From contig CAYGTK010000006.1 of NCBI GenBank assembly GCA_964352775.1, forward strand, positions 1 to 55,117: a stretch of DNA of 55,117 nt, given 5' to 3'. The stretch is from an uncultured Chitinophagaceae bacterium. GTDB taxonomy: Bacteria > Bacteroidota > Bacteroidia > Chitinophagales > CAIOSU01. A program made the translations under genes and the position numbers. Each line of letters opens with the position of its first letter. Position 1 is the first letter of the stretch. This document shows, one piece after another, positions 1 through 36,836 of the stretch. The notes beneath the pieces were generated by a model that worked only from the letters and a program-made list of their open reading frames with translations, made no database searches and was not told the origin of the DNA.

Positions 1-197
1 TCTGTAGGAATCATTTCCACATTACGCTGCTCATGAACATCGTGAAGGGTTGATTTTGGTATGGCATATCTTTCATGATAAAAATTTAATACGATTTCTT
101 CATCATCGTATCGCATACCAAAAGCTCCATTTACATACAAAGGATTATAATCTTTTGAATATTTGTATTTGAATTTGAATTTTTTCTCTTTCGACAT
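1..197 (-). CDS. Hypothetical protein, 5' part (runs off the window)
   Basis: Not in the ORF track. Hand translation from ATG 197 gives MSKEKKFKFKYKYSKDYNPLYVNGAFGMRYDDEEIVLNFYHERYAIPKSTLHD..., open to the window edge. Confidence 0.7.
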   Translation of the reverse strand, partial: MSKEKKFKFKYKYSKDYNPLYVNGAFGMRYDDEEIVLNFYHERYAIPKSTLHDVHEQRNVEMIPT

Positions 198-366
198 TTG
201 CTTATGCAGTTTTCTTTAATTGAAAGTACTTACTGTTTACTAGGTAAACAATAAATACGTGAAAATAGTGTGAATAGTTAATTTTTATTGTCTGCTACAG
301 CATACAACATTCCCCAACTCCCCGCTAGCGCGCATTCTATGATAAATACAAATTTCAGTTGCTTAA

Positions 367-1347
367 TTAAGTAGCAAATTTAGCTAATGGTACAAAAGGA
401 GTTCCTCTGTTAACTACAGCTACTATTCGGTGAAGTAATTTATTCCTGATGGCGTTCATTATCAGCATGCCGTTCTTTCCCTCGGCTTTCTTTCTCTCGT
501 AGTAGATCCTGATTTCGGCGTCGTGCCGCTTGGCATTGAGTGCCCCCATATTGAGTATCGATTTCATCTTCTTATTGGCAAATGGACTAACCCTGCTTCG
601 ACCTTTGATACTGGTTCCCGAACTGTATTCAAAGGGTGCTACCCCACAATAGCAGGCCAGTTTCCTGGCATCTTTGAACTGGGTGAAACATCGTGTTACC
701 ACCAATAGGTTAGCGGCTATCTGTGGCCCAACGCCTGGTACCGAGTTGAGTAGCCTATAGTGCTTGTCTAGTTGCTCATCGCTCTTTATAAGTGCGGTGA
801 TCTTGTTGTCCATCTCCGCTATTTCTTTGTTTATTGCGTTGATGGCCTTTGTATTGCTGGGTACTAGTTTCTTGCTAATGAAGTCGGCACATTCCTTGGC
901 CGGTATCTTTAGCAAGCCCTTAGCCTTGAGGAGCCTGTCGCGGTTGTTTAGCAACAGTTTGAGTTCCATCAGTTTCTCATCGGGCAGAGAATACAGTTCC
1001 AGCTCATCCTTAAATCGAAGGGCGAATCGTGCGATAGAACGGGCATCGGCCTTATCGCTCTTACCCCTCTGTAAGCCTAGCGACCGTTTAATGACCAGAG
1101 CGGGAACTAAGCTGTAGTCGATTTTTTTGCTGGCCAAAAATGTACAGAGTGGCATGGTATAAACGCCTGTGTGTTCCATGCAATAGAGGCTGGGCTGTTT
1201 GCCCACCCACTTGCGTAATAAGCTAAAGCCCTTGCTAGTATTGTCGAACTTGGCATATTCAACACCTTCCGAAGAGCCAGTCATGACACAAACATCTAGG
1301 GTGTTCTTTGATACATCGATACCTACGAACTGGACGTGGTTTTTCAT
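367..1347 (-). CDS. IS110 family transposase/recombinase
   Basis: N-terminal DEDD RuvC-like motifs GIDVSK, MEHTG and KSDKADA. C-terminal Transposase_20 motifs SVPGVG and YCGVAPFEYSSGTS (catalytic Ser region), plus AIRNKL. Confidence 0.97.
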   Translation of the reverse strand: MKNHVQFVGIDVSKNTLDVCVMTGSSEGVEYAKFDNTSKGFSLLRKWVGKQPSLYCMEHTGVYTMPLCTFLASKKIDYSLVPALVIKRSLGLQRGKSDKADARSIARFALRFKDELELYSLPDEKLMELKLLLNNRDRLLKAKGLLKIPAKECADFISKKLVPSNTKAINAINKEIAEMDNKITALIKSDEQLDKHYRLLNSVPGVGPQIAANLLVVTRCFTQFKDARKLACYCGVAPFEYSSGTSIKGRSRVSPFANKKMKSILNMGALNAKRHDAEIRIYYERKKAEGKNGMLIMNAIRNKLLHRIVAVVNRGTPFVPLAKFAT

Positions 1348-1373
1348 ACCTTTAGTTTTAACATTAATAATGT

Positions 1374-1530
1374 GTCGTTCAGCATTAATGCCTTTAATGG
1401 GTCTCTAGCCCGATATTCTATTGAATGCCTGATCGACGAAGTGACAGGGGACTGATGCGCCAGATAGGACTCTATTCCTTGCGAGCGTGTTAGTTCACCC
1501 CTGTCATTTCTTAAGTTAATCTTTTAGCTT
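1374..1530 (-). ncRNA. Putative IS110 bridge RNA: target-binding loop 1439-1509, donor-binding loop 1374-1437; ends approximate
   Basis: Stem aagtgacagggg (1439-1450)/cccctgtcattt (1498-1509) encloses guides gcgagcgtg (1481-1489) and gcgccag (1457-1463). Stem gtcgttcagcatt (1374-1386)/aatgcctgatcgac (1424-1437) encloses guides attctat (1415-1421) and aatgccttta (1387-1396). The guides match the target flanks and the IS ends. Confidence 0.8.
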
Positions 1531-1544
1531 CTGCTAATCTAAAG

Positions 1545-1853
1545 GCGAGCTTGAAGCTCGTGACTACGAAACATAAAAGCCAAGGTTGTAGTGAGCGGGA
1601 GGTTACGACCAGTCGAACTATGGAGTGCCGAGCGATGGACGGTGTTCCCTTCACGGCCCTGCACCCTTCGACTATTCCGCTACGCTGCATGCTCAGGATG
1701 ACCTATGCTTTTTTGTATGTAATAACGAGCACCCCGCGTGAGGGATAGTAGTGGCACCCCACAGCCCTTCGACTGCTGCGCGTTGCTTCGCGCTCAGGAC
1801 GGCAGGCTAAGGCGAGGAGTATAGCGGATAGCCCGACCCCTAGGGACACGCCC
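1545..1853. repeat. Cluster of REP-like GC-rich palindromic repeats
   Basis: Hairpin cgagctt-g-aagctcg at 1546-1560. Two direct copies of cccttcgact...gctcagga (1664-1702, 1765-1800) and one inverted relative gtagtgagc...agtcgaac (~1588-1618). A longer gcgtgagggatag...tatagcggatagcccgacc...cacgccca element spans 1736-1853. Confidence 0.7.
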
Positions 1854-1940
1854 ACCTTTCAATTATAACAGTAACACACGAGTTATTATATTTAGTAACG
1901 GCGATAGAAAAACCGACCATCAAGAAATACAAGATAAGCC

Positions 1941-2459
1941 ATGAGAGTAACTAAACTGATACTGTTATTGGGCATCGTAATAATTGGGTGTACAAACACG
2001 AACGCTAACGAAGTAGAGCAGCAAGAAAGTGAAGCGGTACAAACGGAAAAGGAACCTTCTACAGATCAACAGATAGCTACCTTTTTAACCTTCCAAAAGA
2101 ATGATGCCGAACAGGCCATGAACTTTTACATAAGCTTGTTTGATAACTCAAAGGTTATTTACCTTAAACGCTGGGGAGCTGAAGGCCCAGGGAAAGAAGG
2201 CACCATAATGCATGCCACCTTTGAACTGAATGGACAACGATTTATGTGTAGCGATAGCCCACCTATACACGATTGGGATTTTTCGCCAGCAGTATCTAAT
2301 TACGTTGACTGTAAAGAGGAACGTGAATTGGATGCCTTATTCTCAAAATTGGCTGAAAATGGACAGGTAACCATGCCACTGGGTAATTATGGGTTCAGTC
2401 AAAAATTTGGATGGGTAATTGACCAGTTCGGTGTTTCGTGGCAATTGAATTGGCAGTGA
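1941..2459 (+). CDS. VOC family (PhnB/3-demethylubiquinone-9 3-methyltransferase-like) protein with N-terminal lipoprotein-like signal
   Basis: Motifs TFLTF..NDAEQAMNFY, HATFELNGQRFMCSD and GWVIDQFGVSWQL. The N-terminus ends IIIGC. Confidence 0.88.
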   Translation: MRVTKLILLLGIVIIGCTNTNANEVEQQESEAVQTEKEPSTDQQIATFLTFQKNDAEQAMNFYISLFDNSKVIYLKRWGAEGPGKEGTIMHATFELNGQRFMCSDSPPIHDWDFSPAVSNYVDCKEERELDALFSKLAENGQVTMPLGNYGFSQKFGWVIDQFGVSWQLNWQ

Positions 2460-2523
2460 GCTTCCATCACAAAGCTTAAATTTTCTACTCCTTCATTACC
2501 TAACTATCCCGTAGTTTTAAGCT

Positions 2524-2796
2524 ATGGATAAGCCTAGTATTTGGTTGCGGGGGGTGTTTGCTATGCTGCTGGTGCCAATTTGTTTTGTATTGGCGGCGGG
2601 GTTAAGCCTCTTTTTTATCCCTGATAATGAGGGTTTTGCTGGCGCTGCTACGGTGGCTATGAGTGGTTTGGGGGGGGCGTTTTTAGGCTTGCTTGGGGGT
2701 ATTGTGCTTTCTGCTCAGTTACCTAAAAAGCTTTTGGTACGGGCCAATTACGTACTGCTTGTAGTGGTAATAGTGTTAGTAGCTTTATTTACCTAA
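2524..2796 (+). CDS. Small membrane protein (about 3 TM), possibly truncated by a premature TAA (frame reopens to 2889)
   Basis: Three hydrophobic stretches including GFAGAATVAMSGLGG. A further 30 open codons follow the stop. Confidence 0.65.
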   Translation: MDKPSIWLRGVFAMLLVPICFVLAAGLSLFFIPDNEGFAGAATVAMSGLGGAFLGLLGGIVLSAQLPKKLLVRANYVLLVVVIVLVALFT

Positions 2797-2913
2797 AAGT
2801 ATAACAAAGACAATGCCCATGATGGGAATAACAGCCCAGCCGTGCCGCCTAAGATAATTACCAAACCTGCTGATAAAGTAAAGCTTTAATGGCAGTGAAT
2901 TTTGGGTACTGAC

Positions 2914-3294
2914 CTATTCCTTGTTAAATATCCAACCATTAAGGCCCACTACTTCGCCTATGTCTATGGCCTCTCTAATTTCCACTACTCTGAGTCCAAA
3001 GCCAGGTATCTTTAAGAGTACCTGCAGCATGTTTGCTTTTGGGTATATCTTTATTTTTTTGATGATACCTGCTTTGCCACCACCTCTTTTTTCTAGGTAG
3101 CTTTTGGGTTCGCCGCCTGACCAGATAAACTGAAATCGGCCGTAAGGGGTTTTTCCATAGCCCAGTTTTAGCTCATCGCCGATTTTTATGGTGAACGAAG
3201 TGTCTTTATAGGTTACGGTTACTGAGTCAAGTTTTTCTGCAGCATATATGCCTGTGCTAAGTAGAGTGATAACTAGGATGATAAGTGGTCTCAT
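2914..3294 (-). CDS. Hypothetical secreted protein
   Basis: Signal-like N-terminus MRPLIILVITLLSTGIYA. Alternative start at 3312. Confidence 0.7.
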   Translation of the reverse strand: MRPLIILVITLLSTGIYAAEKLDSVTVTYKDTSFTIKIGDELKLGYGKTPYGRFQFIWSGGEPKSYLEKRGGGKAGIIKKIKIYPKANMLQVLLKIPGFGLRVVEIREAIDIGEVVGLNGWIFNKE

Positions 3295-11279: not shown

Positions 11280-12398
11280 ATGAAGCTAAATAGAACACTT
11301 TTCATTGTTTTAGCCCTGCTTTTGGCCAATTCTGCTGTTTTTGGGCAGCTAAGAGTTCCTGCCTGCGATGAAGGCGATGAGCTTTATCAAAAGGGTGAAT
11401 TTGCCCTAGCTATTAAGGCTTTTTCTACTTGCTTAGAGTTCGATAAGTTCAATGGGTTTAATTATTACAATCGTGGGATGGCCTATCTGCAATTAGATAT
11501 TAACGGCCGGGCCATAGTAGATCTTGAAAAAGCGATAGAGCTAGATGAGAAATTCATGCCGTCGTATTATGCCCTGGCCGAACACTACATGGATAAAGGG
11601 GAGGAGGAAAAAGCGATCAATTGGATGAACAGGGCCATTCGAATATATCCCCTTCTAGCATATAATTTTAACCTGAGGGGCTGGATACATTTTCAATTCC
11701 ATAATTACCCAGCAGCTTACAAAAGCTTTGATAAGGCCATACAGCTTGATTCTACTTACGCCAGTGCTTATAACAATAGGGGGTCGGCAACCTATCTATC
11801 TCAGAATATTGCTGATGCGCATAGAAATGACCTTTTGGCAGCTAAGCAAGACTACCTTACCGCTTTATTTTTCGACCCAGATCTGTCAGAAGTATATCGT
11901 AACCTGGGTTACATCCATATTTACTTGAATGAGTTGGATACCGCATTATACTATTTGGCTATTGCGGCAAAGCGAAATCCTAATGACCCCATGGTTCCTT
12001 ATTATAAGGGCTTAGTTTATAAACGGGAAGGAAAAATATCAAAAGCTCTAGAAGGATATAACCGAGCTATTTCAATTTATAACAGACTGGCTGGTGCTTA
12101 CTTTGAACGGGCTGAGATATATGTGAGAAGAAGAAATTGGGAAGAGGCCAAATTCAATTATCAGAAAGCACTAGACTTCGGTCGTGATACTGAAAAGGGG
12201 AGGTGTTATTATGGTTTTGCCTTAATTTCGGCCATCAAAAAGAAAGAAGGGGAGATGTTCAAGCAGCTTGAAAAAGCAAGAAAAGAAGGCTATTTCGATA
12301 GTAGAATAAATACCTTGGCCTTTAAAAAGGATAGCTTCTTTGACTCTTTTAGGGGTAAGAAAGAATACAAAGAATTTGTAAAAAGTATTCTGTATTAG
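11280..12398 (+). CDS. Secreted tetratricopeptide-repeat protein
   Basis: Signal peptide followed by repeated TPR units (YYNRG..Y, AYNNRG, YRNLG). Confidence 0.9.
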   Translation: MKLNRTLFIVLALLLANSAVFGQLRVPACDEGDELYQKGEFALAIKAFSTCLEFDKFNGFNYYNRGMAYLQLDINGRAIVDLEKAIELDEKFMPSYYALAEHYMDKGEEEKAINWMNRAIRIYPLLAYNFNLRGWIHFQFHNYPAAYKSFDKAIQLDSTYASAYNNRGSATYLSQNIADAHRNDLLAAKQDYLTALFFDPDLSEVYRNLGYIHIYLNELDTALYYLAIAAKRNPNDPMVPYYKGLVYKREGKISKALEGYNRAISIYNRLAGAYFERAEIYVRRRNWEEAKFNYQKALDFGRDTEKGRCYYGFALISAIKKKEGEMFKQLEKARKEGYFDSRINTLAFKKDSFFDSFRGKKEYKEFVKSILY

Positions 12399-35581: not shown

Positions 35582-36714
35582 TACTCTGCTGAAGCATTTA
35601 TAGGTTCTACAGTCATATCTTCTTTGGCATTCACCAGCGGTTCAACCACTACGGAGGTTCCTTTCGGTAGGCCTTTTATAATAGCGGCATCGGGGTTTAG
35701 CTTTACCACATTTACTTTCATAGCTGCTAATGTGGTGTCTTTTACTGTCCAAACTCGTTCGTTAGTGAGTAGGGCCTTTCGCGGTATTTCATAAGCATCT
35801 TCTACGTCTGGTCCAGAGATGTTTACATCTAAGTACATACCTTCATAGAGAGGCACATCGTTACTCTTCAACTCCACGAAAACCGAGATGGATTGGGTAG
35901 CGGCATCTAATCTATCGCCTATTCTTATTACCCTGCCTGTCCATTTTTGTCCTTCTCCATTTTCAGCCGTGGCTACTGCATACCTGCTCAACCATTTCGC
36001 ATCGCTGGCTGGTAAGGGCACTTCTATTTCTAATCCACCTCCTGTTTGTATAATGGTGGCTATGGCTACTCCAGGGTTAGCGGTTGCTCCTACTTCAAAT
36101 TGAACCATGGAAAAAGTACCGCTGAATGGCGCATAAAAAGAGTGTTTACTCAATCGCTCTTCCGCACTCTTAATGGTATAGTATTGGTTTAGAATACTAC
36201 GACTGGCTATAAAGGTTTTCAGCTTGGGGTCGCTTAGGTCAGGTAGTTCGGCAAAGTTCTTTGTTACATCTAATGCATTAAAAAATTGCTGCCATTGGGG
36301 ATATACGCTAGCGTAGTCAATTTTAATATCAGGCAAAGCACCTGCAACAAGGTTCAAGAACTGGCTTTTTTGGGCAGAAAGAGAAAACTTAGCTTCTGTA
36401 TTATCGATACGGAAAAGTAATTGCCCCTTTTTGAACGACCGACCTTTTTTAAGAGGTACTTGACCTTCTAATAGTTTACCCTGTACTTCTGATAATAATG
36501 CTACCGAGCGTCCCGAAACTACTCGGCCACTTCCAAATATCTCTACGGCTACAGTACTAAGTTTCACCTCATCTACTTTAACATACTGTTTTGCCGCCTT
36601 AAATTCCTTTACTGGCGGGTCCGTTTTTAGGCTGGTAAGCCCTTTCATCACGAAAACACCAATAACGATTATAATGACCGCAACAACGGCTCTAACGATG
36701 GATATGGGTTTCAT
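35581..36714 (-). CDS. RND periplasmic adaptor (membrane fusion protein)
   Basis: N-terminal anchor, EVQGKL..FKKGQLL, APFSG and LYEGMY. Confidence 0.93.
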   Translation of the reverse strand: MKPISIVRAVVAVIIIVIGVFVMKGLTSLKTDPPVKEFKAAKQYVKVDEVKLSTVAVEIFGSGRVVSGRSVALLSEVQGKLLEGQVPLKKGRSFKKGQLLFRIDNTEAKFSLSAQKSQFLNLVAGALPDIKIDYASVYPQWQQFFNALDVTKNFAELPDLSDPKLKTFIASRSILNQYYTIKSAEERLSKHSFYAPFSGTFSMVQFEVGATANPGVAIATIIQTGGGLEIEVPLPASDAKWLSRYAVATAENGEGQKWTGRVIRIGDRLDAATQSISVFVELKSNDVPLYEGMYLDVNISGPDVEDAYEIPRKALLTNERVWTVKDTTLAAMKVNVVKLNPDAAIIKGLPKGTSVVVEPLVNAKEDMTVEPINASAE

Positions 36715-36760
36715 AGATTACCGTATCTATTTGTTTATACATGGAAAGTTAGGCTAAGAG

Positions 36761-36836
36761 CAAAAGTAAAGATTTAGTTCACTTCACAGGCCTATTAAAC
36801 TGGCAGTTGGCTGATATGTTCGTACAGTTGGTCGAT
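36761..36836 (-). promoter_or_regulatory. Efflux operon promoter (-7 TACTTTTG at 36768-36761) with upstream 21-bp-spaced direct repeat (LytTR-like)
   Basis: cagttggctgat (36804) and cagttggtcgat (36825). A divergent TACTTTTG for lhgO lies at 36856-36863. Confidence 0.5.

Follow-up and report, generated by a model that had tools for sequence, protein, structure and literature searches.

Bridge RNAs have been predicted in 85.7% of the IS110 insertion sequences (Durrant et al. 2024, PMC11208160), and a 2026 preprint clusters 181,180 intergenic sequences beside IS110 genes. In the guide logic described by Durrant et al. 2024 (PMC11208160), the right target guide (RTG) and the right donor guide (RDG) of such an RNA pair, on the top strand, with the core and the right arm; their counterparts are the left target guide (LTG) and the left donor guide (LDG). 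For the recombinase of IS621, the catalytic residues D11, E60, D102, D105 and S241 were given by Hiraizumi et al. 2024 (PMC11208158). Here we analysed a contig of an uncultured Chitinophagaceae bacterium (GenBank assembly GCA_964352775.1, contig CAYGTK010000006.1, positions 1 to 55,117), and this whole stretch of 55,117 nucleotides is called the window. Positions 334-1544 on its minus strand are very probably an intact insertion sequence of the IS110 group and the IS621 type, with a left end that encodes a bridge RNA. An earlier annotation of the same DNA (the initial annotation) had already read a bridge RNA with four guides at this locus, and its individual claims are taken up below together with the results that bear on them.

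Recombinase, ends and core of the element

The element and its surroundings are composed of the following features. Sequences are given in element orientation.

334 to 1544, minus strand: body of the IS110-group insertion sequence, 1211 bp with the flanking GC copies excluded; three lines of end evidence
367 to 1347, minus strand: recombinase gene, 326 amino acids (aa); Pfam PF01548 and PF02371, NCBIfam NF033542
334 to 366, minus strand: right end (33 nt), in which 340..334, ATAGAAT, form the left arm of the donor
1545 to 1546, minus strand: left GC core copy, a sequence reading; LTG positions 8-9 and the core complement of the RDG both read GC
332 to 333, minus strand: right GC core copy, a sequence reading; the core complement of the RTG reads GC
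1547 to 1553, minus strand: left target flank CAAGCTC, the 3' arm of the hairpin CGAGCTT-C-AAGCTCG; 6/7 against LTG positions 1-7
320 to 331, minus strand: right target flank GCGCTAGCGGGG, the end of a repeat similar to repetitive extragenic palindromes (REP-like repeat)

The 326 aa protein contains the two Pfam domains DEDD_Tnp_IS110 (PF01548, E 8e-23) and Transposase_20 (PF02371, E 8e-22). The NCBIfam model NF033542, 'IS110 family RNA-guided transposase', is matched with 183.5 bits compared to a cut-off of 140, and the top matches among PDB structures are ISCro4 (E 3.8e-29) and IS621 (E 6.3e-29). In an alignment over residues 1-318, D11, E58, D98, D101 and S243 lie opposite the IS621 residues D11, E60, D102, D105 and S241. 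The open reading frame (ORF) is intact and all five catalytic residues are present. The description of the recombinase as compact in the initial annotation has to be dropped, as its size is normal for the family and the IS621 chain has 328 residues in its PDB copy.

The element has a left end of 197 nt (1348-1544) and a right end of 33 nt (334-366). Its junctions are CAAGCTC-GC-CTTTAGATTAGC on the left and TATCATAGAAT-GC-GCGCTAGCGGGG on the right. The only dinucleotide common to both junctions is GC, and the bases adjoining it differ. The ends are supported by this common GC, by GCCTTTAGATT and CATAGAATGC, which are conserved at the ends of relatives, and by solo end remnants in the same genome. 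In relatives the left end keeps GCCTTTAGAYTTG and the right end CATAGAA(T/A) with two further bases. The GC core proposed in the initial annotation is borne out by GC at 1545-1546 and 332-333 and by guide core positions that read GC. At least five other lineages among the collected relatives have a GC core as well. A search of the full-text literature for a GC core in IS110 bridge systems gave no match, where the supplementary tables of Durrant et al. 2024 and of later surveys, in which such cores are possibly listed, lie outside the reach of that search.

An inverted triplet of 3 bp, ATC...GAT, surrounds the donor arms (341-343 and 1537-1539), and there are relatives with ACC...GGT in its place. 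The triplet resembles the short subterminal repeat described by Durrant et al. 2024 (PMC11208160).

Fold, guides and covariation of the probable bridge RNA

Within the left end we distinguish the 5' hairpin, the target-binding stem-loop (TBL), the donor-binding stem-loop (DBL), the four guides and two handshake dinucleotides.

1524 to 1537, minus strand: 5' hairpin TTAGC-AGAA-GCTAA, seen in the minimum free energy (MFE) fold of this element only
1438 to 1510, minus strand: TBL, from fold and covariation; outer and inner stems covary
1374 to 1437, minus strand: DBL, from the fold, single-sequence folds and covariation
1481 to 1489, minus strand: LTG CACGCUC + GC (CACGCTCGC), register from homologues; 8/9 against CAAGCTC-GC (1553..1545)
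1457 to 1463, minus strand: RTG CUGGC + GC core complement; the homologues L040 and L012 have the same guide
1455 to 1456, minus strand: TBL handshake AU, the complement of AT at positions 6-7 of the right end
1413 to 1421, minus strand: LDG AUAGAAU, then AU; this AU (1414..1413) mismatches the GC core
1390 to 1396, minus strand: RDG UAAAG + GC, complement of GC-CTTTA at the left end
1388 to 1389, minus strand: DBL handshake AU, which pairs with the donor's own AT and not with the target's TC

The left end folds into the 5' hairpin followed by two stem-loops with internal loops. The MFE of 1348-1546 (minus strand) is -57.1 kcal/mol compared to -39.2 +/- 4.1 kcal/mol in shuffled sequences, and 0 of 200 shuffles were as good. 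With stem-loops at 1510-1438 and 1437-1374, the span given for a fold of two stem-loops in the initial annotation, 1374-1509, was exact. Folding of the left end and homologue covariation had been named there as the check to be made, and they gave a fold z-score of -4.35 and covariation both in the stems and between guides and flanks, as detailed below.

Recombinase homologues were gathered from genomes of the same order and the same class. In the order, 51 of 401 genomes (the own genome counted) have a recombinase match at E 1e-40 or better, and in the class 7 of 401 genomes have one at E 1e-75 or better. The closest relatives are 51-56% identical in protein. No close relative turned up when the DNA of the element was searched for in 17 other genomes of the family. 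Scans with the single protein found no near relative either, with one locus at 35% identity in the genome contigs and one at 40% identity in the metagenome contigs. Loci with less than 215 nt upstream were omitted from the counts. The locus L012 was omitted from the 27-sequence alignment (A1) and from the guide tables, its RNA being located 1.2 kb upstream of the gene, and was examined separately. One locus, L043, comes from an unpublished genome (G492). It contributes 1 of the 34 RTG pairs, 1 of the 54 handshake rows, 1 of the 45 model-aligned rows, one row among the single-sequence folds, one guide-table row and one junction outside the 14 measured spacers, and no claim depends on it alone.

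Homologue upstream regions align with the left end of the element (27 sequences), and RNAalifold on this alignment gave 21 pairs, 20 of which show compensatory changes. A covariance model (alignment A2, model R1) was built from 28 homologues with this element excluded. It matches 1363-1511 on the minus strand with 97.6 bits (E 6.9e-19), which is its sole significant match in 55 kb. Across 47 sources the model has 45 matches, and the relatives score 41.5-139.6 bits. In the 45 model-aligned sequences, 95.6% of the cells pair, compared to 69.5 +/- 1.0% in shuffles, and double changes occur at 19 of 19 pairs, although this alignment is fitted to the covariance model and hence favours the structure of the model. 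As a control, partners were slid by 1-3 columns, upon which pairing falls to 28.1-58.9%. The outer stem of the DBL is poorly aligned by MAFFT. By manual count, at least 10 enclosing pairs are present in 30 of 37 unique single-sequence folds; under a stricter scripted criterion 13 of 37 pass, partly because the motif regular expression was misplaced. The fold, the homologues and the covariance model support the order of a target loop followed by a donor loop, which had been read as IS621-type in the initial annotation. It is likely that the left end encodes a bridge RNA, with a predicted length of about 150-190 nt.

No Rfam family reaches its gathering score anywhere in the window, and among matches with E up to 1 in 1-3000 none covers 1363-1544. 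The covariance model has a second match (E 0.072, 17 bits) at 36694-36799; it lies upstream of a gene for a DAO-family oxidoreductase and was put down to chance.

Each guide string named in the initial annotation occurs once in the left end on the minus strand, and homology puts LTG, RTG, LDG and RDG exactly at the positions given there. The LTG CACGCTCGC at 1489..1481 matches the left flank and core at 8/9 as claimed. The LDG sequence ATAGAAT at 1421..1415 equals, at 7/7, the 7 nt with which the right end closes (340..334), and the observation that it is followed by AT rather than GC is correct (1414..1413), which leaves the LDG with 0/2 at the core. The RDG with its core matches at 7/7. Two claims stand in part. 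The 10-mer TAAAGGCATT (1396..1387) is the exact complement of AAT-GC-CTTTA, composed of right end, GC and left end, but by the IS621 model it does not form an extended donor guide: the first two of the three bases past TAAAGGC are the DBL handshake position. Likewise, CTGGCGC (1463..1457) does complement GCGCTAG (331..325) with one rG:dT pair, but the register of the family covers the core and the right target arm, where the match is 4/7.

The guide matches exceed chance. On both strands of the window, the LTG is matched at 8/9 or better in 4 of 110,218 positions, ATAGAAT occurs in 15 of 110,222 positions and GCCTTTA in 10 of 110,222. The RTG CTGGC-GC predicts the flank GC-GCCAG, and this flank is found at 7/7 in L040 and L012, both with an identical RTG; the LTG of L012 fits its own left flank at 6/7. 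The sequence GC-GCTAG, which fits the RTG at 6/7 plus one rG:dT pair, flanks two right-end remnants in this genome. An rG:dT pair is tolerated in IS621 (Durrant et al. 2024, PMC11208160).

Across the family, donor guides were used to place the element ends and the target guides were then tested on the flanks. Elements lacking a found end motif are not among the 34 RTG and 41 LTG pairs, and mislocated ends were retained as misses. Comparing the RTG with the 5 flank bases beyond the core, 24 of the 34 unique pairs match at 4/5 or better, compared to 25 of 1100 non-cognate pairs. The mean number of matches is 3.74 for cognate and 1.36 for non-cognate pairs, and 0 of 10,000 permutations reach the observed sum. 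For the LTG and 7 flank bases, with the best of three registers, 29 of 41 unique pairs match at 6/7 or better (non-cognate: 16 of 1606). With one fixed register it is 18 of the 41 pairs, and again 0 of 10,000 permutations reach the observed match sum. In the genome G079, copies that differ in their LTG differ likewise in the left flank.

A 151-nt contig of a marine metagenome (run X4, from another study) covers 1394-1537 with 7 substitutions and 4 indels, all within 1460-1489. This segment holds the LTG, the RTG and the apical loop, and the stems are unchanged. From the difference table, the guides of the contig are LTG GCGCCCC-GC and RTG CTCACGC. An overlapping contig of the same run extends past the left end into ACACCCC-GC, which matches the variant LTG at 7/9 and the LTG of this element at 4/9. 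At a depth of about 3, and with two contigs that are not proven to be one molecule, this relative is suggestive of natural reprogramming on a fixed scaffold.

Two loci among the homologues have an unusual arrangement. In L012 (52% protein identity, tblastn segment), the bridge RNA is found at 61-220, about 1.2 kb upstream of the recombinase at 1456-2472, with G+C-rich repeated sequence in between, and the locus could be either an expanded element or an insertion within the left end. In L069 (genome G163, one 3-kb locus), the bridge-RNA model matches at 69-216 on the plus strand and at 2014-2159 on the minus strand, alongside two adjacent recombinase matches, which looks like two elements head to head.

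Target site, predicted circle junction and handshake bases

The element is located between the hairpin CGAGCTT-C-AAGCTCG and the tail GCTAGCGGGG of a REP-like repeat. REP-like repeats are the kind of site that IS110 elements use. The tail G[N]TAGCGGGG has 26 exact sites in the assembly, many of which follow similar hairpins. Units of this family, with a short hairpin and then G(C/A/T)TAGCGGGG, are seen in the window at 320-331 and 1547-1580 and on the contigs C16, C25, C50, C58, C68, C78, C126 and C274.

The assembly also contains remnants of related elements. Those of the right end, on C130 and C170, stop at ATAGAAT-GC-GCTAGC, and like the element both lie at the boundary between hairpin and tail of a REP-like repeat. 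The remnant at C130:8951-9117 is composed of a 3' gene fragment and the right end (81% identity), and C170:3185-3217 is a solo right end. A left-end stub of 20 nt on C50 (near 11506-11538) begins with ACACTC-GC-CTTTAGATTAGCAG and directly adjoins another REP-like unit.

Further repeats lie beside the element. The region 1600-1860 of the window is G+C-rich, has two similar units and gives a sub-threshold match to the Flavo-1 RNA (22.4 bits; gathering score 42). Its part 1664-1700 is found in many metagenome contigs with different flanks, indicating a dispersed repeat.

By analogy with IS621, the element would excise as a circle joined as ATAGAAT-GC-CTTTAG. A tetramer of the DEDD/Ser recombinase would then swap strands at the GC core. 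The ideal target site would be CACGCTC-GC-GCCAG, with GCTAG tolerated through one rG:dT pair. Two features bear on expression from the circle.

1534 to 1541, minus strand: TAGATTAG, similar to a -7 box, at left-end positions 4-11; compared with the consensus TAnnTTTG
349 to 352, minus strand: right-end TTTG, which a circle would place 20 nt upstream of TAGATTAG; predicted split -33/-7 promoter

The promoter consensus in Bacteroidetes is TTTG/TAnnTTTG at -33/-7 (PMC6847099). At the circle joint the TTTG of the right end would come to lie 20 nt from TAGATTAG of the left end and could serve as a -33/-7 promoter for both bridge RNA and recombinase. It is thus predicted, from these motifs only, that joining the right end to the left end rebuilds a promoter of the Bacteroidota kind. 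Relatives carry TAGATTTG, TAGGTTTG and similar sequences at the position of the -7 box, and of the 14 relatives' junctions that could be measured, 13 have a spacer of 19-21 nt between TTTG and the box. The assignment of the host to Bacteroidota in the initial annotation is consistent with the host genome, in which at least 150 C-terminal domains of the type IX secretion system (T9SS) were found, compared to 0 in 14 control genomes. Many T9SS C-terminal domains fit Bacteroidota.

After strand exchange in IS621, the two bases that follow the RTG on its 3' side, and likewise those 3' of the RDG, pair with the other DNA (Hiraizumi et al. 2024, PMC11208158). It is also reported for IS621 that the complex is locked, or excision favoured, when a handshake pairs with its cognate DNA, and that donor pairing of the DBL handshake reduced insertion. 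Of the 54 unique elements in the collected family, 53 have a first TBL handshake base that pairs with donor position 7, where ATAGAAT goes with A and ATAGAAA with U. The TBL handshake AU of this element pairs with the donor AT, as expected. The DBL handshake pairs with the target in 31 of the 54 unique elements. The handshakes of this element appear to be neutral, with 2 base pairs before and 2 after exchange. As the LDG has no core pairing and both handshakes are on the donor, this element could be a natural variant whose handshakes favour neither insertion nor excision.

Both junctions are defined for 20 insertions of relatives. In 10 of these the dinucleotide on the left is not the same as that on the right, and the difference is at the first base only. 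The differing pairs (left/right) are AC/TC, CC/TC or GC/AC, and the difference follows the guides in 10 of 10 cases, with LTG and RDG giving the left base and LDG and RTG the right base; the opposite sense was found 0 times. The relatives named for this observation are L014, L018, L019, L034, L042, L046, L051-L054 and L061. With 2-nt staggered cuts as in IS621, the heteroduplex should yield both senses. We therefore put forward, as a tentative and rather doubtful proposal from the junction sequences, that target and donor may differ in the first 'core' base in this Bacteroidota clade. Position 8 would then act as a third handshake base and the crossover would truly take place at a single C. 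Another possibility is that the top strand alone is inherited, in which case these natural sequences would support single-strand copy-and-paste, a model put forward in the abstract of Xie et al. Empty-site patterns in the genomes of two relatives gave counts equal to the reversed-pattern control, and no empty sites were recovered. The element described here is the symmetric GC/GC case.

Alternative readings and comparison with known systems

Several observations weigh against an intact and active element, in addition to the fitting of the 45-sequence alignment mentioned above. The sequences show the anatomy of the element, its catalytic residues, a conserved RNA structure that covaries, guides that covary with flanks in the family and the guide matches of this copy. 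The transcription of the bridge RNA, the formation of a circle and the strand chemistry are inferred, and so is the programmability proposed in the initial annotation, which is taken from the behaviour of the family. Sequencing runs with the locus comprise four DNA runs and no RNA run, which is uninformative on expression. The assembly has one full copy of the element; as a draft of 331 contigs it collapses repeats, and the copy number is a lower bound. The ideal target CACGCTC-GC-GCCAG has 0 sites with at most 1 mismatch in the assembly, 6 sites with 2 mismatches and 92 with at most 3. The relatives are distant, and covariation at short distance depends only on the one low-depth metagenome contig. 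Contigs of four DNA runs contain neither a circle junction nor an empty site, and they leave the right junction of this copy uncovered. The two LDG positions that face the core read AU and not GC, where the second position mismatches the core in relatives too, with L016 as the sole exception, and the DBL handshake AU pairs with the donor AT and not with the target TC. Furthermore, the flank of this copy reads GC-GC-GCTAG with one extra GC, and GCGCTAG begins 2 nt past the core copy. In the canonical register the RTG matches this flank at 4/7 (GCGC), and at 6/7 plus one rG:dT pair if shifted by one GC. The low match in register is thus due to the extra GC. Copies of the repeat elsewhere in the genome occur both as ...GC-GCTAGCGGGG and as ...GCGC-GCTAGCGGGG, and a pre-existing target variant with one more GC is therefore plausible. 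The extra GC may also have come from slippage after insertion or from an assembly error.

These points invite the reading that the locus, though of the same family, is a relic, stranded or of weak activity, which went in off register or by a half match or drifted later, and whose RNA no longer allows efficient transposition. The single full copy next to three end remnants, the RTG match of 4/7 in register and the absence of both LDG core pairs fit this reading, as does the donor-cognate DBL handshake, which is a locked or excision-favouring configuration in IS621 as reported, and insertion by a half match has been reported for IS621 in an abstract. On the other hand, the ORF, all catalytic residues and all stems are intact, the covariance model gives 97.6 bits, a value inside the range of the relatives (41.5-139.6), and there are good matches for LTG, LDG and RDG. 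The natural RTG of IS621 is 4 nt long (Durrant et al. 2024, PMC11208160), as many as the contiguous RTG pairs of this copy, and a copy count from a draft assembly of 331 contigs with collapsed repeats is a lower bound. We regard a relic as unlikely. That the left end is a cis-acting leader controlling transposase expression, with complementarity that has no guiding role, would fit its location directly upstream of the start codon; we consider it very improbable, as throughout the family the loop sequences change together with flanks and ends and the stems have their own internal covariation, and as the homologous RNA of IS621 was experimentally shown to be a guide (PMC11208160, PMC11208158). 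Finally, strings of only 7-9 nt in an AT-rich leader, with many registers open to a reader, might match by chance. The registers are set independently by homologues, the background in the window is 4/110,218 to 15/110,222 positions per motif and 0 of 10,000 permutations reach the observed sums, and we give this explanation hardly any credence. An intact element with a guide RNA in its left end remains our preferred reading.

Compared with described systems, the element is closest to IS621 and its kin. IS621 of Escherichia coli (PMC11208160, PMC11208158), as described in these papers, shares the DEDD RuvC-like and Ser Tnp domains at nearly equal length with five aligned catalytic residues, and it likewise has a long left end with a 5' hairpin, a target loop and a donor loop. 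In both, LTG and LDG read as the top strand and RTG and RDG as complements that include the 2-nt core, the TBL handshake has the donor arm as its partner, a palindromic repeat contains the target and a short inverted triplet (ATC...GAT here) surrounds the donor arms. The two differ in that the protein match is distant (E 6e-29, residues 1-318), and the core is CT in IS621 and GC here. The RTG has 4 nt in wild-type IS621 and 7 nt here, the LDG lacks core pairing here with a donor-cognate DBL handshake, and the circle promoter is sigma-70 in IS621 whereas a Bacteroidota -33/-7 promoter is predicted here. The best PDB sequence match, ISCro4 / IS622 (E 3.8e-29; Perry et al. 2025 preprint; PDB 9t56), has the same architecture. 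It is reported to have a CT core, a Proteobacterial host and activity tested in human cells, whereas our element is known from sequence alone.

The IS1111 group has the same recombinase family and an RNA-guided choice of target and donor (Durrant et al. 2024), but its RNA is described as part of a long right end, and its subterminal inverted repeats are long, whereas the element has its RNA in a left end of 197 nt and a right end of 33 nt. Membership of the IS1111 group was ruled out by the 33-nt right end, the RNA model match in the left end and an inverted triplet of only 3 bp (ATC/GAT). With a long left end, a short right end and the RNA in the left end, the element therefore belongs to the IS110 group. 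ISPpu10 of Pseudomonas putida (2026 preprint) is an IS110 element as well, with insertions at copies of one conserved intergenic repeat. Its host, guide set and repeat are different, and its authors propose that target recognition has a further, structural layer.

IS110 bridge RNAs have been known since 2024, are predicted in most of them and have been mined at scale, and one more readable element is therefore no discovery in itself; the locus is a real but ordinary addition. Its value is that of a clean, fully annotated natural example from Bacteroidota, in which a GC core that is palindromic and an RTG of 7 nt occur together with a REP-like target and a -33/-7 promoter predicted at the junction. 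The gathered relatives raise a testable question on the first core base and the inherited strand, and beside IS621 and ISCro4 / IS622 the element is a candidate orthologue for bridge recombination in Bacteroidota.

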